Positions 1 to 21,725 of a DNA stretch of 64,000 nt are shown here, one piece after another. Numbering within the stretch: the stretch's first letter is position 1; every line of letters begins with the position of its first letter. A program made the translations under genes and the position numbers. Below the pieces are notes generated by a model. It did no database searches. It worked only from the letters and a program-made list of their open reading frames with translations, and was not told the DNA's origin. This DNA comes from an uncultured Holophagales bacterium (GTDB taxonomy: Bacteria > Acidobacteriota > Thermoanaerobaculia > Multivoradales > UBA5704), in NCBI GenBank assembly GCA_963842525.1, contig CAWJGT010000022.1:1-64000 (forward strand). The letters run 5' to 3'.

Positions 1-201
1 GAGATCGTCGCGCAGTCGCCTCAGGGCGGTGGTTTTGCCGCTGCCCGGCTCGCCGGTGAGCAGGCCGATGGCCCTGGAGTCGACCAGGTAGCGCAGACGG
101 CTGTGGGTTTCGAGCCCCTGAGGCCGAAACAGAGAGTCGGCGGTGAGGGGGCCGTGGAAGGGCGGCCGGGTGAAGCCGAAGGCGGTGGTATAGAGGTTCA
201 C
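1..201 (-). CDS. ExeA-like AAA ATPase, N-terminal part (runs off the window)
   Basis: Manual translation from GTG at 201 gives MNLYTTAFGFTRPPF...GLLTGEPGSGKTT, with the ExeA-type FG..PF start and a Walker A motif. Its start overlaps the upstream transposase stop (GTGA). Confidence 0.8.
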   Translation of the reverse strand, partial: MNLYTTAFGFTRPPFHGPLTADSLFRPQGLETHSRLRYLVDSRAIGLLTGEPGSGKTTALRRLRDDL

Positions 202-1525
202 TGGGGCTCCCCCTGATAGAACTTCTGGCGATGAGCTCGAGGTAGCTGATGCCGGTGGTGGGCGCTTCTCTGGCCGGCTCGCTGTTTCTTTCGAGTCGGC
301 GCAGGGTGGCGTTGGTGGCGAGGTCGAGCCGGCGCAGAGGCAGCTCGGCGCTCTGGCCTTTGCGGCAAAAGTGGACGGGCCGGGCGGGGTCATAGGGATC
401 GTAGAGGACGTCGACGGTCTCACCGGCATAGCCATCGGGAGCCTCATAGAGACGGCCGTCGAGGTGGACGGTGCGGTCGCGGCCGACCCGGCGGGTGACC
501 TTCATGCGCAGCCAGGCCTCCAGGTGCTCGGGGGCCGGGCGGATCAGGGCCTGGTCCTTCAGAAAGCGGTCCAGAGGCGTTTGCCCGTCCAGGCCGCCGT
601 GGGCAGTCTGGTGATACTCGCCCTCCAGCCAGGCCCAGAAGACGCGGTTGAGCTGGGCCAGATCGGCGAGGACCTCGCTGGTGAGGTGGGGGACAAAGGC
701 GGTGCGGACGTGGCGGAAGAAGCGCTCGATCTTGCCGCGACCGCGCGGCTTGTGGGGCCGGGAGTGGACCAGGGAGATGTTCAGCGTGGCGCAGATGACC
801 TGCAGGTGGTGGGTGCGGAAGGTGGCGCCGTTGTCGCAGTAGAGCCGTCGCGGCAGGCCGCGGCGCAGCAGAGCCTGCTTCAGAGCGTCCTGGAAGCAGG
901 CGGCGTTTTCGGCCAGGTAGAAGGCGGCAAACGGCACCATGCGCGAGGCGTCATCGAGGAAGGCGTAGAGGTAGGTCTTGCCGCCGTCCTTGCGCCCCGG
1001 CACCAGCAGGCGGGGCCCGTGCATCAGGTCGGAGGTCCACAGGTCGTTGACATGCGGAAAGGTGAAAGCCAAAGCGTCCGGCTCGGCGCTGGACCCTTGG
1101 CGGGCCGGCACCGCCTGGGCGGCGAAGAAGCGGTGCACGCTGCTGCGCGACAGCCGCAGATTGGGCGCAAAGCGGCCGCACAGATGCACGGCGCGGATCA
1201 GGCTGTCGAGCGAAGCACCGGGCCGCTCGGCCCGCAGCGCCAGCAGCAGATCCTGCACCTCCTCCGGGATCGCCCGCGAGCGCCCGGCATCGGTACGCGG
1301 GCCCGGCTTGAGCCCCTCAAACCCATGGATCTGGTACAGCTCGAGCCAATCTCGCACCGTCGAACGGCCGACGTGGCTGCGCGCGCTGCCCGGGATCGTC
1401 CACGTCTTTTCCGCGATCGCACACAACAGCTTCTCTTTTTCGCGTGGCGCCAACGGCCGGCTGATCAGCTCGGCAATGACGCTGTGGCGAAACAACGCAA
1501 TCTGCTCTCTTTGGCTCTCATCCAT
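198..1525 (-). CDS. DDE integrase/transposase (rve, Mu-like C-terminus), 1-nt frameshift near the 3' end
   Basis: Absent from the ORF track. Manual translation gives MDESQREQIALFRHSVIAEL...WTSDLMHG...FLDDASR...LYCDNGATF...RGKIERFF (DDE motifs). Restoring one base near 230 gives IAQKFYQGEPQ* ending at 198. Confidence 0.85.
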
Positions 1526-1616
1526 CGCACGAAGTCTCCGCAATCGGGCTCTGGGACCATCCCACAGCCCCCGCCAGTAGCTTCGTGGCAGAACCCTGCG
1601 ATGGGTAGTTACCAAC

Positions 1617-2180
1617 CTATGGAGAGGCCTCCCCTGACCGCCAGGACGGCCGGCCGTGGCGGAACAGTCCGCTCACTCCGCCGAAAAAGCAGCCCCAGGA
1701 CGACCACAGAAAGTGCCGCAGCCGCGTCAACCAACCCGCCGCCTGGCCCACCACCTCCTGCGCCCCCCGCCACCACGGAGCCGGCACTGGCCCCAGCAGC
1801 GCCTGCAGCTTGGCGGCAAAGGGCTCGTGCGCGCTGCGCAGCCAACCCCGCACCCGCCGCACCCCCGAACTGCCGCACTGCCCTGAAACCTCGGCGCCTT
1901 CGCTCGGACTCCCCGCAGCCAGACCCGCCTCCACGGCCGCCAAGGTCAAATCGCGATAGGCGCACACGTCCTCCGGCAACACCGCATGGCTGACCCTGCA
2001 ACGCGGGCACCGCACCCGCCGCAAGGCCTGAAGCACTCCTGCGAGGAAGCGCTTGTAGGAGCCGTGGCCCCGCAGACGGGTCCTCTGACAATCCGGATCC
2101 GGGCAGCTCAGCTCGGGAACCGCCCCGCCGTCCATCTGCTCTCGATACTGCTTGCAGCCCACGCCCTTCAGACTTAACAT
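1617..2180 (-). CDS. Zn-ribbon accessory protein of the transposon (DUF6431-like)
   Basis: CPDPDC...LRGHGSYKR...RVRCPRCRVSHAVLP motif; lies directly upstream of the DDE transposase; GAGGAGG RBS precedes the ATG at 2180. Confidence 0.7.
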   Translation of the reverse strand: MLSLKGVGCKQYREQMDGGAVPELSCPDPDCQRTRLRGHGSYKRFLAGVLQALRRVRCPRCRVSHAVLPEDVCAYRDLTLAAVEAGLAAGSPSEGAEVSGQCGSSGVRRVRGWLRSAHEPFAAKLQALLGPVPAPWWRGAQEVVGQAAGWLTRLRHFLWSSWGCFFGGVSGLFRHGRPSWRSGEASP

Positions 2181-2377
2181 GGCCTCCTCTCGGAAGCCCG
2201 TCGGGTCATCCCCGGTCCGCCAAAAGACACAAGGAGAGCCCGGCGGGCTTCGCTTGCCTTGCCCGACCTCTCCACAGGCAAAATCGTCCCGCACTCCTGC
2301 GCCGACGAATCTACCTGACCACGCTGAAAACTGGGAAAAACTCAGGCGGCGGTCACGAAATAAGGCGGGCGTCTACA

Positions 2378-2559
2378 CCTGCTCCTCCACCCGCTGGCGA
2401 AGCTCACCGTTGTCTTGGCGAAGCTCAGAGTTCTCTTGAAGGAGTTCCTCGTAAGTCGGCATGCCTGAAAGACATTAGACCATGCCGAGAAGAGAACTTC
2501 AAGCCCTTGCGGACGTGCCACCGCTCGGGGAAGGCGGCACTAGGGCGGTAAACAGATAC
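2378..2559 (-). mobile_element. IS66 left-end fragment, interrupted by the DDE/ExeA element
   Basis: Reverse complement of 3450-3631: GTATCTGTTTACCG end plus coding sequence for MPTYEELLQENSELRQDNGELRQRVEEQ. Confidence 0.9.
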
Positions 2560-2761
2560 CCCGCTACCTAGCCATTGCCCGGCTTGTGGCTGCCAGGAGA
2601 GCAGGTCCCTCACGGTTCCCGCCCCGCACGCTTGCGCGTGCCTCTGTACATTGTCGGAGCCGCTCTTTATTCAGGCCCCTAGGTTCACCCGGTGGTACGG
2701 GTGGTTCCGTCTCTGACTGCGAGGGGAACAACTTCATATATAAAGCGACATCGTGTCGCAG
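2560..2761 (-). ncRNA. Group II intron, 5' 202 nt (copy 1), interrupted by IS66
   Basis: Reverse complement matches 19420-19621. Confidence 0.85.
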
Positions 2762-2818
2762 CAACGTGATGCGCCTCAGCGGCGCCGCAAGGCGTCCGCT
2801 GCAGGCGCCGGGTTAGCA
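2762..2818 (-). other. attC site (intron inserted after GTTG)
   Basis: Minus strand reads TGCTAAC-CCG-GCGCCT[G]CAGCGG[A]CGCC-TTGC-GGCG-CCGCTG-AGGCGC-ATCAC-GTTG, giving R''/L''/L'/R' boxes with two extrahelical bases. Confidence 0.85.
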
Positions 2819-3449
2819 GTCAGTCCACGTCGGCTATCATATATCTCATTCACAATACGCCCCACTATCCGCCGATATTCGAATCCTGCGGGCTTACCGA
2901 CGACCAGGCTGGGCTTCCAGCCTTCTCCAAATTTAACAGCGATAGCTTCCTTAGGCAGGCCGAGTGGCAACTTCACTTGCAGCCGCTCGGCAATACTCTC
3001 CGAGAAGCGCTTCCATGTCTCGTCGAAATTGAAGGGCCTCGGCTGTGGCACAAAGAGAACAGTCCTCGAAGGCTCCTTCGTAGAGTTAATGTGTTCGAAT
3101 TCCCAGAGTAGCCCCGGAGTATCTCCTATCGTTATACACACGACATCACTTCTGGCAGCGAGTTCAATAAAGTGGTTCATCCACTCTCCGGGAGGGACAT
3201 AGTCGCGGTATGCGCCAAGGGGTGGAGCCAATCTGTCGGGTCTCCCAAACGCAACAACAGGGCCAAGTTCTTGTAACCCAGAGCAAACAAGCTCCTCAAA
3301 GGCCCACGGCCGCTTGTTGACCCAGAATTCCGTATTTAGCATATTGTGAGAGGATGGGGAATTCTGACTGCTCTTTCTCGAATCTTCGCGGAAGGATCTA
3401 AGATAGAGAATTGTAGGGCGCTTATCACACTCAACCGCCTGGGTAGCAG
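2776..3449 (-). pseudogene. Cassette gene truncated at its 5' end by IS66 (LYLRSF..D / GPVVA.GRP / G.T.GL.WE family hypothetical)
   Basis: The frame stays open upstream of the track ATG (DKRPTILYLRSFRED) up to the IS end at 3450. GC is low and the gene ends inside the attC. Confidence 0.7.
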
Positions 3450-4435
3450 GTATCTGTTTACCGCCCTAGTGCCGCCTTCCCCGAGCGGTGGCACGTCCGC
3501 AAGGGCTTGAAGTTCTCTTCTCGGCATGGTCTAATGTCTTTCAGGCATGCCGACTTACGAGGAACTCCTTCAAGAGAACTCTGAGCTTCGCCAAGACAAC
3601 GGTGAGCTTCGCCAGCGGGTGGAGGAGCAGGAGCGCCAGATTGCGCACCTGAAGCGCCGAATCGTCGATCTGGAGAAACTTGTCGAGGAGCTACGGCGCC
3701 GGGGCAAACGCCAGGCTGCCCCCTTCTCGAAGGGAGATCCGAGCGAGGATCCCAAGTCTCCAGGGCGCAAAGCCGGGGATCAATATGGTCAGCAAGCGAC
3801 TCGAGCTGTGCCCGATCACGTCGACGAAACCATCGTGGTGGAGTGCCCGCTGTATTGTGAGCACTGTGGGGGTCAGGTCATTCCGCAGGGCGAAGCTCGC
3901 CAGTATCAGACCGATCTGCCGCCGATTCGGCCGGTGACGACGGAGTTCATCCTCCATTATGGGAAGTGCTCGGCATGTGGCCGGGAAGCTGTGGGGCGTC
4001 ACCCGCGCCAGACTTCCCAGGCGTTCCGGGTCGGCAACGTGCAACTCGGTCCAAACGTGTTGGGGCTCGCCGCCTGGCTCAACAAGGTCGGAGGCTTGAG
4101 CTACGGCAAGATCGCCGCGTTGCTGAAGGAGCTGGCTGGACTGTCTGTGTCGCGCTCGGCCCTGTGCCGCGCGCTGCTTCGCATGAGTAAGAAGCTGGAG
4201 CCCTTGTACGAGGAGCTGAAGGCGAAGATCCGGAGCTCTCCTGTGGTGTACCCGGACGAGACGGGCTGGCGGGAGGGGGGCTATAGCGTGTGGTTGTGGG
4301 TGTTCACCAATCGCAGCGAGACGGTCTACAGCATCCAGCCGGGTCGTGGCTATGCCGAGGCCTCTGAGGTCCTGGGGGAGGGCTTTGTCGGCGTGCTGGT
4401 GGCTGATGGTTGGGCTCCCTATCAGAAATTTGAAG
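3450..4435 (+). mobile_element. IS66, 3'-truncated copy (986 bp)
   Basis: Matches 4436-5421; truncated transposase ORF 3547-4455. Confidence 0.9.
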
Positions 4436-6092
4436 GTATCTGTTTACCGCCCTAGTGCCGCCTTCCCCGAGCGGTGGCACGTCCGCAAGGGCTTGAAGTT
4501 CTCTTCTCGGCATGGTCTAATGTCTTTCAGGCATGCCGACTTACGAGGAACTCCTTCAAGAGAACTCTGAGCTTCGCCAAGACAACGGTGAGCTTCGCCA
4601 GCGGGTGGAGGAGCAGGAGCGCCAGATTGCGCACCTGAAGCGCCGAATCGTCGATCTGGAGAAACTTGTCGAGGAGCTACGGCGCCGGGGCAAACGCCAG
4701 GCTGCCCCCTTCTCGAAGGGAGATCCGAGCGAGGATCCCAAGTCTCCAGGGCGCAAAGCCGGGGATCAATATGGTCAGCAAGCGACTCGAGCTGTGCCCG
4801 ATCACGTCGACGAAACCATCGTGGTGGAGTGCCCGCTGTATTGTGAGCACTGTGGGGGTCAGGTCATTCCGCAGGGCGAAGCTCGCCAGTATCAGACCGA
4901 TCTGCCGCCGATTCGGCCGGTGACGACGGAGTTCATCCTCCATTATGGGAAGTGCTCGGCATGTGGCCGGGAAGCTGTGGGGCGTCACCCGCGCCAGACT
5001 TCCCAGGCGTTCCGGGTCGGCAACGTGCAACTCGGTCCAAACGTGTTGGGGCTCGCCGCCTGGCTCAACAAGGTCGGAGGCTTGAGCTACGGCAAGATCG
5101 CCGCGTTGCTGAAGGAGCTGGCTGGACTGTCTGTGTCGCGCTCGGCCCTGTGCCGCGCGCTGCTTCGCATGAGTAAGAAGCTGGAGCCCTTGTACGAGGA
5201 GCTGAAGGCGAAGATCCGGAGCTCTCCTGTGGTGTACCCGGACGAGACGGGCTGGCGGGAGGGGGGCTATAGCGTGTGGTTGTGGGTGTTCACCAATCGC
5301 AGCGAGACGGTCTACAGCATCCAGCCGGGTCGTGGCTATGCCGAGGCCTCTGAGGTCCTGGGGGAGGGCTTTGTCGGCGTGCTGGTGGCTGATGGTTGGG
5401 CTCCCTATCAGAAATTTGAAGAAGCGACTCATCAGACCTGTCTGGCGCATCTGTTGCGCCGTTGCGAGGAGCTGCTGGAGAAGGCGACAGGGGGTGCGGT
5501 GCGCTTTCCTCGGGCGGTGAAAGAGATCCTGCAGGCCGCCTTGGAGGCGCGAGATCAGCGGGACGCGGGCAAGCTCAGCGGCGAGGCGCTGGAGAAGGTC
5601 AAGCAGGACTTGGAGCTCCAGATGGAAAGGCGTCTGTCGGGGCAGTTCACGAACCCCGACAACCAGCGTCTGGCTCAGCATTTGATACGTCACCAGGAGC
5701 AGCTGTTTGTCTTCCTGGAACGCACGGATGTGGAGGCGACCAATTGGCCGGCCGAACAAGGGATTCGCCCGGCGGTCATCAACCGCAAGACATCTGGGGG
5801 AAATCGGACGGCCGAGGGGTCCCAGGCGCAAGCGGTCTTGATGAGTGCCCTGCGCACATTTCAGCAACACCAAGTCGGGACACTCGAGATCTTGCCCCAG
5901 CTTCTGCGCAGCCCCCAGCTACCGAAGCTTGAGGCAATACTTCCTGCGTCACAGCCACCGTAACAGTTCTCGCCACGAGTTATCCGTGGCTCCAGGTCGG
6001 TAGCCGCTCGCCCTCGTCAGGTCGCCTGGCCAGCGCGGACGTGTGTCCAGGGAAAACCTTCCCCAAAAGTGCCGCTGACGGTAAACAGATAC
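4436..6092 (+). mobile_element. Complete single-ORF IS66 (ISBst12-like organisation)
   Basis: Terminal inverted repeats GTATCTGTTTACCG (4436) and CGGTAAACAGATAC (ends 6092); no tnpA/tnpB accessory genes. Confidence 0.9.
4533..5963 (+). CDS. IS66 family transposase (TnpC-like)
   Basis: Leucine zipper, Zn finger CEHC/CSAC, and the motifs DETGW, ADGWAPY, QTCLAHLLR and TNWPAEQGIRPAV. Confidence 0.95.
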   Translation: MPTYEELLQENSELRQDNGELRQRVEEQERQIAHLKRRIVDLEKLVEELRRRGKRQAAPFSKGDPSEDPKSPGRKAGDQYGQQATRAVPDHVDETIVVECPLYCEHCGGQVIPQGEARQYQTDLPPIRPVTTEFILHYGKCSACGREAVGRHPRQTSQAFRVGNVQLGPNVLGLAAWLNKVGGLSYGKIAALLKELAGLSVSRSALCRALLRMSKKLEPLYEELKAKIRSSPVVYPDETGWREGGYSVWLWVFTNRSETVYSIQPGRGYAEASEVLGEGFVGVLVADGWAPYQKFEEATHQTCLAHLLRRCEELLEKATGGAVRFPRAVKEILQAALEARDQRDAGKLSGEALEKVKQDLELQMERRLSGQFTNPDNQRLAQHLIRHQEQLFVFLERTDVEATNWPAEQGIRPAVINRKTSGGNRTAEGSQAQAVLMSALRTFQQHQVGTLEILPQLLRSPQLPKLEAILPASQPP

Positions 6093-6399
6093 CCTTGGAG
6101 GTGCCGGCGCCCGTGGCTCCTGCGGAACGGCAGCTCTCCCTGCGGCGGGCGTGGAGCTACCGGGCGGACAGTTGGGGCGGTGGGCGTCCGCTCCAAAGGT
6201 TGTGCGCGTCCGATGGTCGGAGGTGGCCCGCCCCAGCTTCTCAGCTCTTTTCTGCGTGAGGAAGAGGGCGGGCCGGCCCCCCGCGGGACGCTGAAGCTTC
6301 GTCTGGGCCTCGTCCCCGCGGCCCCGCCGGGCGCTCAAGCTTTCGGTGGGGCTGGCCAGGATCCGCTGGCTCGGGGGGTGGGAGCGGCCGGGCAGGGCG

Positions 6400-18720: not shown

Positions 18721-19155
18721 ATGCGAATCTACATGGACAACTGCTGCTTCAACCGGCCTTTCGACGGCCAGACCCAGGCACGCATTCGGCTTGAGACGGA
18801 GGCGAAGCTGCGCATTCAGGAGCGTATTGCGGCTGGCGAGATCGAGCTCGCTTGGTCCTACATTCTGGACTACGAGAACGCGGCAAACCCCTTTGAGGAG
18901 AGACGGACAGTTGTCAGTTCGTGGAGAAGTCGGTCTGTCGTAGATGTTGCTGAAACCCCTGCGCTGCTGGAATATGCCAAGTCGCTGGTCGTTCAAGGGC
19001 TTCGCAGCAAAGATGCTCTCCACGTTGCCAGCGCAGTCGAAGCTTCTTGCGATTATTTCGTAACTACAGACGACATTGTCTTAAAGAAGCTCGCCAAGGA
19101 ATCGCGCATCATAGTGGTTGATCCGGCTACCTTTGTTAGGAGTACCGAACCATGA
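18721..19155 (+). CDS. PIN-domain toxin
   Basis: MRIYMDNCCFNRPFD...DALHVASA...YFVTTDD. Confidence 0.9.
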   Translation: MRIYMDNCCFNRPFDGQTQARIRLETEAKLRIQERIAAGEIELAWSYILDYENAANPFEERRTVVSSWRSRSVVDVAETPALLEYAKSLVVQGLRSKDALHVASAVEASCDYFVTTDDIVLKKLAKESRIIVVDPATFVRSTEP

Positions 19156-19355
19156 TTACAGACGAAGAACTGAAGGTGCAGGGAGTACGTGTACTGATTG
19201 CGGCGCTTGGGGATGTTCAGGCGGAGAGGTTTGTGAGCTTACTCACACGCGCACCGTTTGACTATACGAAATGGCAGGCAAGTCTTTGGCCGGATGTAGG
19301 AGTAGAAGAATTGAGCCATAAGGCGATGCGGATGCGTACTGATCTGGGTAAATGA
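19152..19355 (+). CDS. Putative antitoxin
   Basis: 67 aa, ATGA overlap with the PIN gene; G.VQAERF...DYTKW motif. Confidence 0.75.
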   Translation: MITDEELKVQGVRVLIAALGDVQAERFVSLLTRAPFDYTKWQASLWPDVGVEELSHKAMRMRTDLGK

Positions 19356-19362
19356 AAGAACC

Positions 19363-19419
19363 GCCGAACCCGGCCGATCGAGCGGACGGCAAAGCCGCCG
19401 CTCATCGGCATCCCCGTTA
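19363..19419 (+). other. attC site (intron inserted after GTTA)
   Basis: GCCGAAC-CCG-GCCGAT[C]GAGCGG[A]CGGC-AAA-GCCG-CCGCTC-ATCGGC-ATCCCC-GTTA. Confidence 0.85.
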
Positions 19420-20232
19420 CTGCGACACGATGTCGCTTTATATATGAAGTTGTTCCCCTCGCAGTCAGAGACGGAACCACCCGTACCACCGGGTGAACCT
19501 AGGGGCCTGAATAAAGAGCGGCTCCGACAATGTACAGAGGCACGCGCAAGCGTGCGGGGCGGGAACCGTGAGGGACCTGCTCTCCTGGCAGCCACAAGCC
19601 GGGCAATGGCTAGGTAGCGGGTAAGGTAAACACATGTGAACCTGTGCAACGACCGTCAAGCGCGAACGAGCTAAAGTGGCTGACAAGCTCGAACCAAAAG
19701 GTATGGGGGCCGGAGGTGGATTTAACGGTGCCACCTCGTGGTCGATAGGGCTCCCCGGTCGACAGCAGGTACCTAACCCCGCGCAGACTTCAGGAGCGGA
19801 ACGTGGTAACCCCGTATCTTCGCCCGCAAGGGCAGGTGAACCGCAAGGGGATCTATTGGAGGTGCGGGCTTGGGAGGTCGGAAGAAGCGAATGCCGTCCT
19901 GTAATGGTGCGGATACGGGTTTCAACGTCACCCGGCACGAAAGTGAGCCCACGTCCGACTGGTGCCTCTTTGCGAGAGCGTATGGAGAACACCTTGAACG
20001 GGGAAGGCAAATAGGAGATGGAGGTGGTTCGGCCACCCGTCTGTGCGCCCCCTCCTCTGGCTGGTCCAGAGCTGGTGCCTGCCATGGTAGTATCGCAAAG
20101 GATGTCCAGTTGTAGGGACAACCGGGTCGGTCACGGATCGGCCTTTGAGGTGCTTGAGCCGTATGCGGGGAAACTCGCACGTACGGTTCTTAGAGGGGCT
20201 GGGGGGCCGTAAGGTCCCCCGGCCTACTCGGC
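19420..20232 (+). ncRNA. ORF-less group II intron (813 nt, probably IIB/CL-like)
   Basis: 5' CTGCGACACG; EBS1 hairpin at 19713-19737; domain V GAGCCGTATGCGGGGAAACTCGCACGTACGGTTC (20156-20189); domain VI with bulged A at 20226; no RT ORF. Confidence 0.9.
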
Positions 20233-20244
20233 GACGACGCAGCA

Positions 20245-20745
20245 ATGTCGCACGAGTTCAAACGACAGTTCGAAACCCTCGCAGCAGGGGATGCCGCCCG
20301 ACTAGAACAGCTCGCTCGTGAGCTTTCGGGCTTCCCTCATGGCACAGACAGCTTCATGCACCGACACTGGATCACAAACGCAATTGATTCTGGGTCGATT
20401 CGGTCGGTGAAGTGGATGCTCGAAAAGGGTGTGGACCTCAACTTTCGGGATGCCGAAGGCTACACGCCGCTTCATAGCGCTCTCGAACAGCCCGAGCGAG
20501 TCCGGTATGGACTGTTGGAACTGTTGCTTGAGGCGGCTGCCCCGATCAACATTAAAGGGGTGAACGACTGGACGCCCGCGCACGCCGCAGCCGCAAGAGA
20601 CGATGTTGAAGCTCTAAAGATTCTCGTGAGGCATGGCGCCGATCTTAATGTACGAACTTCAATCGACGACTACGCGACTCCGCTTGAGGAGGCCAGAAAC
20701 CTTGGCAAGCTTGAAGCCGTCAAGTTTCTCGAAGGCGTCGTCTAA
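20245..20745 (+). CDS. Ankyrin-repeat protein (gene cassette)
   Basis: GYTPLHSA, WTPAHAAA and TPLEEA repeats; the stop lies inside the attC R'' box. Confidence 0.9.
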   Translation: MSHEFKRQFETLAAGDAARLEQLARELSGFPHGTDSFMHRHWITNAIDSGSIRSVKWMLEKGVDLNFRDAEGYTPLHSALEQPERVRYGLLELLLEAAAPINIKGVNDWTPAHAAAARDDVEALKILVRHGADLNVRTSIDDYATPLEEARNLGKLEAVKFLEGVV

Positions 20746-20827
20746 CACTTCGCTGGAGCGGACGCGTGAGGGATAAAGTGCCAAGCTCATACATCGGCGC
20801 GCGCGCCGCTCAGCTCAACCGTTCGCC
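20740..20827 (+). other. attC site
   Basis: GTCTAAC...GCT[G]GAGCGG[A]CGCG...CGCGCCGCTCAGC...GTTCGCC. Confidence 0.85.
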
Positions 20828-21021
20828 GTCGCGCACCGGTGTTGTCGCCCTGGCCAGGAGTTGCTGAGGCTGGCCTGGGGCCTCAGGGTCCAGCCTCAGA
20901 GTTGCTTCCGGACCCCCATGGGCAGCGAAGGTTCGGTGCGACTGCTGCCGGGCCTGCCTCTGTGGCTGCACCACCGACATACCCACTTGCAGGGCTATAC
21001 ACCCACTTGTATACTGGCCCC

Positions 21022-21366
21022 GTGCCTGATAAGATGATCGTCTGGGTTGGGGCCTCCTTCGAGGATCTGCGGGACTTCGCCCCAGAAGCTCGGAGGACTG
21101 CCGGCTACGAACTGCGCCGAATCCGTGGTTTGATGCCGACCGACTGGAAGCCGATGCCGAGCATTGGGCCAGGTGTCAACGAGATTCGAATCCATACGCA
21201 TGTAGAGCATAGGGTGATATATGTGGCGAAGTTTGAAGAGGCGGTCTACGTGCTGCACGCCTTCGAGAAAAGAAGCCGGCGGACTGGCGACGCAGACCTC
21301 TCCCTGGCACGCGAGCGCCTCAAGGAGGTTGAAGCCCTCCGCCGCGAGGAAAGGAGAAGGAAATGA
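21022..21366 (+). CDS. higB: RelE/HigB-like toxin (Gp49 type)
   Basis: W.GASFEDLRDF...DWKPMPSIGPGVNEIRI...YVLHAFEKRS; start uncertain (21022 or 21034). Confidence 0.85.
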   Translation: MPDKMIVWVGASFEDLRDFAPEARRTAGYELRRIRGLMPTDWKPMPSIGPGVNEIRIHTHVEHRVIYVAKFEEAVYVLHAFEKRSRRTGDADLSLARERLKEVEALRREERRRK

Positions 21367-21662
21367 CTAGCCGGGTTCGACACTCAACCGGAAATGTATT
21401 CAGGGATCTCGGATTCGGCGAAGACGAGGCAGAGAACCTCAAGATCCGAGCCGATCTAATGATTGAGCTGACCAAGTTGATTGAGGCCCAGGATCTCACA
21501 CAATCCGTCGCCGCGGAGCTCCTCGGAGTGACTCAGCCGCGGGTCAGCGACCTCATGCGAGGGAAGATCGACCGCTTTAGCGTCGATAGCTTGATTGAGA
21601 TGCTCGGTCATGCAGGCGCTTGCGTGTCGGTTGTGGTCACTCGGCGCAGTCAGGTTGCATAG
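21363..21662 (+). CDS. higA: XRE-HTH antitoxin
   Basis: STGNVFRDLGF...LTQ..AAELLGVTQPRVSDLMRGKIDRFS. Confidence 0.85.
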   Translation: MTSRVRHSTGNVFRDLGFGEDEAENLKIRADLMIELTKLIEAQDLTQSVAAELLGVTQPRVSDLMRGKIDRFSVDSLIEMLGHAGACVSVVVTRRSQVA

Positions 21663-21667
21663 CCGGC

Positions 21668-21725
21668 GGCGAACCCAGCCGATCGAGCGGACGGCAAGCC
21701 GCCGCTCATCGGCATCACGTTCGCG
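21668..21725 (+). other. attC site
   Basis: GGCGAAC...GTTCGCG; near-identical to the attC at 19363; its R'' box is the exact reverse complement of the cassette start GTTCGCC at 20821. Confidence 0.9.

Follow-up and report, generated by a model that had tools for sequence, protein, structure and literature searches.

The stretch of DNA analysed here, called the window in what follows, comprises positions 1–64,000 of the forward strand of contig CAWJGT010000022.1 in the 9.95 Mb assembly GCA_963842525.1 (34 contigs, 96% complete) of an uncultured Holophagales bacterium (Thermoanaerobaculia). At positions 19420–20232 of the plus strand, the window holds a group II intron of 813 nucleotides (nt) without an open reading frame (ORF), lodged in the R′ box of an attC site, the recombination site of the mobile gene cassettes of integrons. 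Comparison with its relatives makes it quite probable that the intron is ORF-deleted and non-autonomous, and that it belongs to a TeI4h-like (CL/IIB1-type), monophyletic lineage specialised in homing to attC. An earlier note on this DNA, made from the letters alone, had proposed an ORF-less intron of this length in the core of the R′ box, and the Rfam matches to domain 1 (D1) and to D5–D6, a covarying fold and the match of the split site to an attC covariance model, named R1, all agree with that proposal.

The intron starts with CUGCGAC and ends with CUACUCGGC. Its junctions read CCCCGTTA / CUGCGAC...CUACUCGGC / GACGACG, and removal of the intron gives GTTAGAC. Two Rfam families exceed their gathering thresholds: RF02012 (group-II-D1D4-7) at 19477–19610, with 77 bits against a cut-off of 34, and RF00029 (D5–D6) at 20154–20232, with 65.1 bits against a cut-off of 40. 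Neither the ORF list nor the alignment to a relative that bears a reverse transcriptase (RT) revealed an RT frame within 19420–20232. An alignment of eight ORF-less copies from five genomes, from which the degenerate remnant G010:C3 was left out, yielded a six-domain fold with 220 consensus pairs, 61 of which show compensatory (two-sided) changes. In this fold, all on the plus strand, D1 extends over 19426–19805 (consensus fold and coordinate mapping), D2 over 19811–19868, D3 over 19876–19960, the ORF-deleted D4 over 19961–20154, D5 over 20156–20189 and D6 over 20193–20229. D5 is 34 nt long and carries an AGC triad, and D6 contains the bulged branch A at 20226.

The ends of the intron deserve a separate comment. 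The termini CUGCG...GGC depart from the GUGYG...AY consensus in all 18 CUGCG-type introns of the attC lineage that were read at either terminus (with GGU instead of GGC in one case). The sister intron L110 likewise begins with CUGCG and ends with GGC, and several sisters that start with G end in AC or AU. In group II introns, the base at the first position is known to contact the penultimate one. C at the first position coincides with G at the penultimate position in the same 18 introns and in the independent sister L110, while G at the first position accompanies a penultimate A in L160 (the nearest relative of L110, with its end read by homology), L124, L150 and L136; L088, with G at both positions, is an exception. 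The C–G combination, at 19420 and 20231 in the present intron, would thus represent a covariation.

The interrupted attC site and its cassettes

The 5′ part of the attC site lies at 19363–19419 (+) and includes the R″ box GCCGAAC (19363–19369), the L″ and L′ stems, with two bulged bases on the AAC arm, and the GTTA of the R′ box (19416–19419). Sites of this kind were identified with R1, which was built from 16 sites and replaced regular expression and energy scans that missed sites and returned false positives. In the R1 hairpin, 93.2% of the cells are paired, compared with 77.0% in shuffles and 30–40% with slid partners; ten pairs show two-sided changes and AAC/GTT is invariant across the 16 sites. 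R1 matches 19363–19418 with 65.8 bits (E 6e-15), and the attC acts as the 5′ exon of the intron. The 3′ exon begins at 20233–20239 (+), within the ankyrin cassette described below: its GAC completes the R′ box (GTTA/GAC), and the G at 20233 corresponds to the third intron-binding site (IBS3). Reverse-complemented, the restored GTTAGAC is identical to GTCTAAC (20740–20746), the R″ box that comes next, a match already stressed in the earlier note. The complementarity is indeed exact and, being symmetric between the strands, it settles the boundaries to the base and says nothing on the strand. A search of 60 related genomes for an intron-less allele of the ankyrin cassette retrieved only matches to attC-like ends; the boundaries therefore rest on this complementarity and on the comparison of copies, whose likeness stops precisely at 19420 and 20232.

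The assignment of the strand comes from the hairpin itself. The bulged bases are found, 6 bp apart, on the same arm as 5′-AAC-3′, and the complementary strand reads T (15 of the 16 sites) and mostly G at these places. According to Nivina et al. (PMC5027507), the placement of the bulged bases distinguishes the top from the bottom strand of attC. Because the bulged bases share the AAC arm, the intron sits on the attC top strand, in sense with the cassettes. Further, on the strand of the intron each attC is directly preceded by the end of a cassette ORF; this holds for the window and also for another array of the genome, beside an intI-like gene. An open frame of at least 60 amino acids (aa) ends at R″ in 61 of 93 attC sites on the strand of the model (median 132 aa), against 41 in the mirror test (median 52 aa), and the other attC matches in intron-bearing loci share the strand of the intron with one exception (L122). 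The sense orientation claimed previously is thus upheld by the bulged bases and by the ORFs that end before attC. Since the integrase crosses over at G/TT, the intron is situated 3 nt inside the ankyrin cassette.

This cassette, which carries the intron at its 5′ edge, encodes an ankyrin-repeat protein of 166 aa (20245–20745, +; Pfam Ank 2.3e-17, Ank_2 5.8e-16). Its own attC (20740–20827, +) has the R″ box GTCTAAC overlapping the stop codon and the R′ box GTTCGCC, and is matched by R1 at 20740–20823 (42 bits, E 1.3e-8). The cassette upstream of the intron contains an ORF with a weak PIN domain (18721–19155, +; Pfam PIN E 3e-4, 21.8 bits, below the cut-off of 23.6) and an ORF of 67 aa (19152–19355, +) for which Pfam found no family and whose stop lies 8 nt before attC; the two look like a toxin–antitoxin pair. 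A third cassette (20839–21725, +) comprises, according to Pfam, a Gp49/HigB-like ORF and an HTH_37 antitoxin-like ORF (21363–21662). It is closed by an attC at 21668–21725 (+; R1 match 21668–21721, 63.2 bits) whose R″ box GGCGAAC, when reverse-complemented, gives the GTTCGCC of the R′ box before it. The attC matches of the window are three co-oriented ones (beginning at 19363, 20740 and 21668; +) and a separate one at 2763–2818 (−). No integrase was found among the window proteins. Elsewhere in the source genome, three identical genes, each coding for an intI-like tyrosine recombinase of 325 aa, stand upstream of attC arrays that run in their direction (C3:356860–357834, equivalent to L038:1360–2334, with identical genes on contigs C9 and C25). 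They score 238 bits on TIGR02249, whose cut-off is 265, in two stretches that skip model positions 178–235, and 232 bits on NF040815, above its cut-off of 220; no integrase of the source genome exceeds the TIGR02249 cut-off. A fourth intI-like copy looks broken (fragments at C9:1070920–1073893).

Copies, relatives and loss of the reading frame

Besides the intron at 19420–20232, the source genome contains an identical copy on C9, a copy with 87% identity on C13, a 5′ fragment of 202 nt and a 3′ fragment on C34. The 202-nt fragment is located in the window, at 2560–2761 (−); it is 100% identical, comprises only the 5′ quarter of the intron, is cut at 2560 by the end of an insertion sequence (IS), and is matched by RF02012 at 2571–2704 with 77 bits. 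It follows another attC (2762–2818, −; R1 match 2763–2818, 57.1 bits) through the junction CACGTTG/CUGCG, as the earlier note had recognised. Three of the four 5′ junctions of the source genome are at R1 attC matches, and the only D1 of the RF02012 type in this genome are those of the four ORF-less copies. The 3′ fragment (C34:603835–604000; L005) derives from a copy that is 92% alike, and an attC match is present about 1.1 kb downstream on the same strand.

The distribution of the intron was then considered in other genomes. Intron matches occur in 14 of the 60 related genomes, with the full copies placed behind the GTTA or GTTG of attC-like hairpins. For a broader survey, one genome per species was scanned for an invariant 18-nt word of D1, and 80 of the 106 matching stretches were analysed. 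These 80 stretches gave 81 motif matches, of which 19 were dropped before counting: 16 had no recognisable 5′ end nearby (chance matches, truncated copies or ends of a deviating type, for instance the GUGCGAG of L135 and L144) and three had unrelated 5′ words (L103, L147 and L164). The remaining 62 intron 5′ ends consist of 28 of the CUGCG type and 34 of the GUGCG/UUGCG type. Of the 28 CUGCG-type introns, 26 have a same-strand R1 match that stops 1 nt short of them; of the 34 GUGCG/UUGCG-type sisters, 2 have such a match, which there reaches right up to the intron (0 nt). Thirteen of the 28 attC-positive sites had served as seeds of R1 and match it by construction, and 15 are independent. Removal of the introns restores R′ cores such as GTTAGGC, GTTGGGC, GTTAGCC and similar words. 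The first base of the 3′ exon, with which EBS3 in the D1 coordination loop of CL/IIB1 introns pairs, was read in 18 CUGCG-type introns of the attC lineage and is G in 16 of them. All the attC-borne introns come from records of Acidobacteriota, mostly Thermoanaerobaculia. The sisters outside attC come mainly from Proteobacteria and lie at unrelated sequences. One of the attC loci holds a degenerate remnant of 1017 nt behind GTTG (L075:1864–2880; G010:C3:6937863–6938879), in which the first 93 and the last 96 nt of the intron enclose leftovers of an RT frame, including a stretch coding for YADD, and most of D1–D3 is lost.

The search for an RT-encoding relative that the earlier note had suggested was successful, and its outcome contradicts the idea that the lineage as a whole is non-autonomous. 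Among the 62 introns, ten are 2218–2234 nt long and eight are 806–814 nt long, and the RT-bearing members occupy the same attC register as the ORF-less intron. In a relative of the long type, L070 (2216 nt), the encoded protein has the domains RVT_N, RVT_1 and GIIM, and Pfam reported no endonuclease domain in it. The best solved relative of this RT is the TeI4h RT (6me0_C; E 8e-160, 536 bits, residues 22–506); LtrA (1.5e-36) and the class IIC enzymes (1e-33 and 6e-32, the former being GsI-IIC at 1.1e-33) follow at a great distance. Mohr et al. (PMC2882425) place TeI4h in subclass IIB1 as kin of the CL/IIB1 intron EcI5. This similarity points to a lineage of the IIB1 type, a label that expresses resemblance to one solved RT and not a position in a tree of reference classes. 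In a maximum likelihood tree of 22 distinct RT rows, one of which (L134) has a very long branch and is probably in the wrong frame, the ten attC-borne RTs form one clade with a support of 100/100. This clade is nested among the sisters found outside attC, and the other intron RTs of the source genome fall outside it. Homing to attC is, on the evidence of this tree, a derived trait of one clade.

The origin of the ORF-less form can be read from its alignment with L070. Positions 1–565 and 726–813 of the ORF-less intron align with L070 at 83–100% identity, and in D4 the ORF-less intron has 160 nt where L070 has about 1572 nt. The helices of D4 covary among the ORF-less copies. As judged from this alignment, the ORF-less form is a deletion derivative of an RT-bearing intron that has kept its ribozyme. 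In a D1–D3 tree with 31 rows, one clade (92% SH-aLRT) unites 10 of the 12 ORF-less rows with two others, L151, which bears an RT, and L123, which has an RT frame of 529 aa and whose length was not measured. According to this tree, the ORF-less form is one that diversified across genomes as an ORF-less element, and the nested RT rows are compatible with more than one loss or with recombination. Both forms are present together in three other assemblies, as identified by their record names.

Reading of the attC target

The segment with which the intron recognises its 5′ exon lies in distal D1. A hairpin at 19713–19737 (+), formed by a 7-bp stem (GAGGTGG/ATTTAACGGTG/CCACCTC) and an 11-nt loop (AUUUAACGGUG), presents UAACGG at 19723–19728 (+) towards the first intron-binding site (IBS1) CCGTTA at 19414–19419 (+). 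The hairpin is located between the two halves of what we take to be a motif resembling the 11-nt receptor, and its stem corresponds to columns 354–358 with 372–376 of the consensus fold, with one compensatory pair. In eight sister introns, positions 4–9 of the homologous 11-nt loop are complementary at 6/6 bases to their own, differing 5′ exons (for example GAAACU/AGUUUC, AGUUGC/GCAACU and AAAUGC/GCAUUU). Because the homologous loop positions covary with the 5′ exon in the sisters, UAACGG is the first exon-binding site (EBS1); the role that the earlier note had given to this hairpin is borne out. Within the attC lineage, 20 introns had the homologous loop read, and the complementarity is 6/6 in 5 of them, 5/6 in 12 and 4/6 in 3; non-homologous hairpins that had been picked automatically in 13 sister rows and in L115 and L123 were excluded from these counts. 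In L101, UAACGU faces ACGUUA. Further, a deeper ORF-less sub-lineage (935–973 nt) has the loop GAACGG and inserts one base earlier, at GTT/RRRY. For the most part, these alignments show that EBS1 would pair with the last exon bases (C)CGUUR, with its first U facing the A or G at position 4 of the R′ box.

A different outcome was obtained for the second exon-binding site (EBS2). CL/IIB1 introns characteristically form EBS1–IBS1 and EBS2–IBS2 helices of about 6 bp each with the 5′ exon. In the sisters, EBS2 consists of 6–7 nt after CGUNA, near position 231, and a run of at least five Watson–Crick pairs with the own exon (−15 to −7) is found in 9 of 18 of them, against 0.7% in a mismatched control. 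In the attC lineage, such a run is found in 1 of 22 introns, against 2.3% in the control, and the segment differs between close relatives. In the present intron, the homologous segment (19659–19665, +; 7 nt after CGUCA) has no complementarity to its own 5′ exon. As far as complementarity can tell, these data show that the attC lineage retained EBS1 and lost the EBS2–IBS2 pairing.

The earlier note held that EBS1 reads the conserved GTT core. The pairing is real, and EBS1 alone is not enough for the specificity. The two strands of the source genome together contain 5267 CGTT[AG]G words, against at least 44 attC matches, so that EBS1 plus a G at +1 cannot explain why attC sites are chosen. This count bears directly on the most serious competitor of the proposed homing to attC, namely that EBS1/IBS1, helped by IBS3, does all the targeting and that attC sites are enriched merely because they supply CGTTRG words in neutral intergenic DNA. 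IBS1 is the sole exon segment that is consistently complementary to the intron, the C9 copy lies at CCGCTA/C without an attC, L122 has the same CCGCTA, and many unoccupied attC sites of the genome read GCGTT/RGGC, all of which would suit such a mechanism. Set against it, attC sites account for 3 of the 4 junctions of the source genome and for 26 of 28 elsewhere, without a change of strand, despite the 5267 words and the 44 listed attC sites. Moreover, an uncompensated loss of EBS2 would produce a very promiscuous element, which the copy numbers do not suggest. Targeting by EBS1/IBS1 and IBS3 alone is therefore considered unlikely. If the lineage does home to attC, the remaining specificity would come from another feature of the site; candidates are the top-strand hairpin in its folded state, recognition of the conserved L′ box by the RT, and exposure of single-stranded DNA during replication.

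Far less probable is that the introns are immobile relics of one old insertion that was copied along with its attC by integrase, duplication or transfer, so that descent and not targeting would explain their position. A relic would fit with the mobile and repeated nature of cassettes and attC sites, with the failure to find a cognate RT in the source genome, and with the search of 60 related genomes, which detected no empty allele of the ankyrin cassette. However, the attC sites that serve as 5′ exons vary in R″ box, loop, length and neighbouring cassettes, and the 3′ exons differ too. In the source genome, three 100% identical insertions (two full copies and one fragment) stand behind three unrelated 5′ flanks, one of which is not an attC, and recent retromobility would be the simplest reading of identical insertions at different sites. 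Covariation between EBS1 and IBS1, in L101 and in the sub-lineage that inserts after GTT, is also at odds with mere descent.

The notion of an S.ma.I2-like, ordinary IIC-attC intron deprived of its ORF hardly survives. The intron shares with the IIC-attC introns a position by the GTT triplet of attC and after a hairpin on its own strand (PMC7923331), whereas the related RT is far nearer to TeI4h than to the IIC RTs, the ribozyme has 813 nt without an ORF and a D5 of 34 nt with the AGC triad, EBS1 forms 5–6 pairs instead of 3–4, and insertion is at GTTR/RRY of R′ on the top strand in sense orientation, contrary to TTGT/T of R″ on the bottom strand in antisense (PMC7923331 and PMC3001079). The distinction from IIC-attC introns and the IIB-like character advanced in the earlier note are thus sustained by the TeI4h-like RT, and the tabulation of flanks that it had called for gave same-strand attC sites, in sense, for all but two of the CUGCG introns.

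Several observations weigh against homing to attC by a mobile, ORF-deleted lineage of this type. The two CUGCG-type introns without an attC, L100 and L110, are exceptions to the specificity, as is the C9 copy, which interrupts an unannotated open frame close to its 3′ end (Pfam found no family for this ORF). The preference for attC could be inflated by purifying selection against insertions into genes, and the survey is limited to 80 of the 106 stretches. Catalytic competence is not assured, given a C1 start and a GGC end that differ from the consensus termini, and the class label is subject to the qualification made above. A cognate RT gene was not found in the source genome, where the best match is 36–39% identical in an assembly that is 96% complete; mobilisation in trans in this bacterium would therefore need an RT that is unassembled, lost or heterologous. 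Finally, no spliced joints were found in the contigs of four sequencing runs (three RNA libraries and one that is perhaps DNA; all in the form of contigs). The contigs of these runs cover only 19414–20233 and are 90–99% alike, and some leave at the intron ends into other flanks. Parts of the stretch occur in 20 of the 24 listed runs, none of which contains half of it, and the cassettes of the window were not seen in the contigs. These contigs show relatives of the intron in soil data, and neither transcription nor splicing.

Mobility, known systems and side observations

In the proposed mechanism of attC homing, the intron RNA would reverse-splice into DNA and then be copied by an RT that a full-length relative provides in trans. 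Where the RT has no endonuclease, it is the lagging-strand template that is used, and the attC top strands of chromosomal integrons tend to lie on that template. Once inserted in sense orientation, the intron would be transcribed with the cassettes and could be spliced from the transcript, in which the attC sequence would be re-formed. Within the DNA, only the GTTA of the R′ box would be left beside the hairpin, and if the integrase still cuts at G/TT, the intron would move together with the ankyrin cassette. A wider and more tentative reading joins these elements: the attC top strand may be a niche that group II introns entered more than once, the IIB1-type lineage having dropped EBS2 and come to read attC structure or context as IIC introns do, in a convergent switch, and two routes of mobility (retromobility and the integrase), together with harmless splicing, could explain the persistence of ORF-less introns even without an RT.

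Group II introns have been linked to integrons before. The IIC-attC introns such as S.ma.I2 are described as inserted on the bottom strand at R″ (TTGT/T), antisense, between the gene and attC, where they block read-through (PMC7923331; PMC3001079). The lineage presented here resembles them in that group II introns occupy attC by the GTT/AAC triplet, directly after a hairpin on their own strand and with a short exon pairing that lacks IBS2. In contrast, both the ribozyme and the RT of those introns are of class C, whereas the present lineage is TeI4h-like (IIB1-type), has an EBS1 of 5–6 bp and ORF-less derivatives, and lies on the top strand at R′ (GTTR/RRY) in sense with the cassettes. A closer precedent is UHB.I2, a single RT-bearing IIB1/CL1 intron in a cassette array from a soda-lake metagenome (Sonbol and Siam 2021, PMC7923331), for which the authors saw no conserved target and only speculated on a role of the top-strand hairpin. 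UHB.I2 is likewise IIB1-type, co-oriented with the cassettes and directly downstream of attC, and its UUGCG...GU ends combine a non-G first base with a penultimate G as in the present intron. The difference, compared by description only, is that UHB.I2 is a single case, whereas the present introns form a clade with a fixed register, an assigned EBS1, a lost EBS2 and ORF-less members. Full-text literature searches, with subscription journals mostly outside their reach, returned no closer precedent. The novelty that the earlier note had left unconfirmed can thus be divided: a IIB1 intron co-oriented with cassettes beside attC has already been reported once (PMC7923331), and what is new is that a whole clade is specific for attC in one fixed register, that the strand has been assigned, that EBS1 is validated and EBS2 lost, that full-length relatives exist and that ORF-less forms persist.

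Two further systems offer partial parallels. Among the TeI4/TeI3 introns of Thermosynechococcus elongatus, according to PMC2882425, ORF-less derivatives arose by deletions in D4, kept the ribozyme and the EBS/IBS pairings, and multiply with the help of RTs supplied in trans. They provide the closest solved RT (6me0_C) and share the derivation of ORF-less forms through D4 deletion. Contrary to the attC lineage, they occupy diverse sequence-defined sites, use both EBS1 and EBS2 and have no integron link, and their ORF-less copies share the genome with the driver RTs, whereas no cognate RT was found in the source genome. The introns Avi.groEL and EcKTE56.groEL are specialised IIB1 introns at start or stop codons, as reported in PMC12584367. 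They too represent a monophyletic IIB1 sub-lineage bound to one genetic context, but that context is a codon of a housekeeping gene and is accompanied by a large D1 insertion, and here it is a recombination site of mobile genes.

The consequences of a IIB1-type clade specialised on attC concern both introns and integrons. A review distinguishes three target strategies of bacterial group II introns, with the targeting of attC and terminators assigned to class C only, and regards bacterial ORF-less group II introns as rare and short-lived (PMC4424553). The clade would use the opposite strand and the other end of the site as compared with class C, with one exon pairing apparently dropped, and it offers a natural test case of sequence homing turning into motif homing. 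The recurrent ORF-less forms of 0.8 kb run counter to that review's view of rarity and short life in bacteria. For integrons, a sense-oriented and potentially spliceable passenger is added to the mobilome, and attC finders and cassette annotation will mis-call sites that an intron has split. A small IIB1-type ribozyme with a guide of 5–6 nt could also be of interest for targetron work.

Some observations made along the way are worth recording. In a beta-proteobacterial record, the sister introns L104 and L108 (about 806 nt, ORF-less) apparently lie within D1 of another group II intron; their exon resembles a CCUGGCAGCCACAAGCC...GCUAG region, which suggests a twintron-like arrangement. In the window, positions 1–6100 consist of nested IS elements with transposase frames of the IS66 family at 3547–4455 and 4533–5963, and one IS end recurs near 2509, 3500, 4486 and 6035. 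An rve/Mu-type transposase (2–1615, −) and a DUF6431 ORF (1617–2294, −) interrupt the IS that cut the 5′ intron fragment.

The same genome also harbours a second, unrelated family of RT-bearing group II introns in the R′ boxes of attC top strands, in the register GT/T. It is represented by C3:360451–362487 (L193:3952–5988) and by identical copies near C11:179933 and C25:512332, with exons and ends that read ..CGT/GUGCGCC...CGAC/TGGGC. At two further GTGCGCC starts behind attC, C3:363339 and C19:362333, Rfam identified no intron even with E values of up to 0.01 allowed. D1 of the second family matches RF02005 with 96 bits, and its RT of 451 aa has the GsI-IIC RT as best solved relative (1.5e-37), nearly level with LtrA (3e-37). 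Together, the two intron families occupy 6 of the 44 attC matches listed for the source genome.

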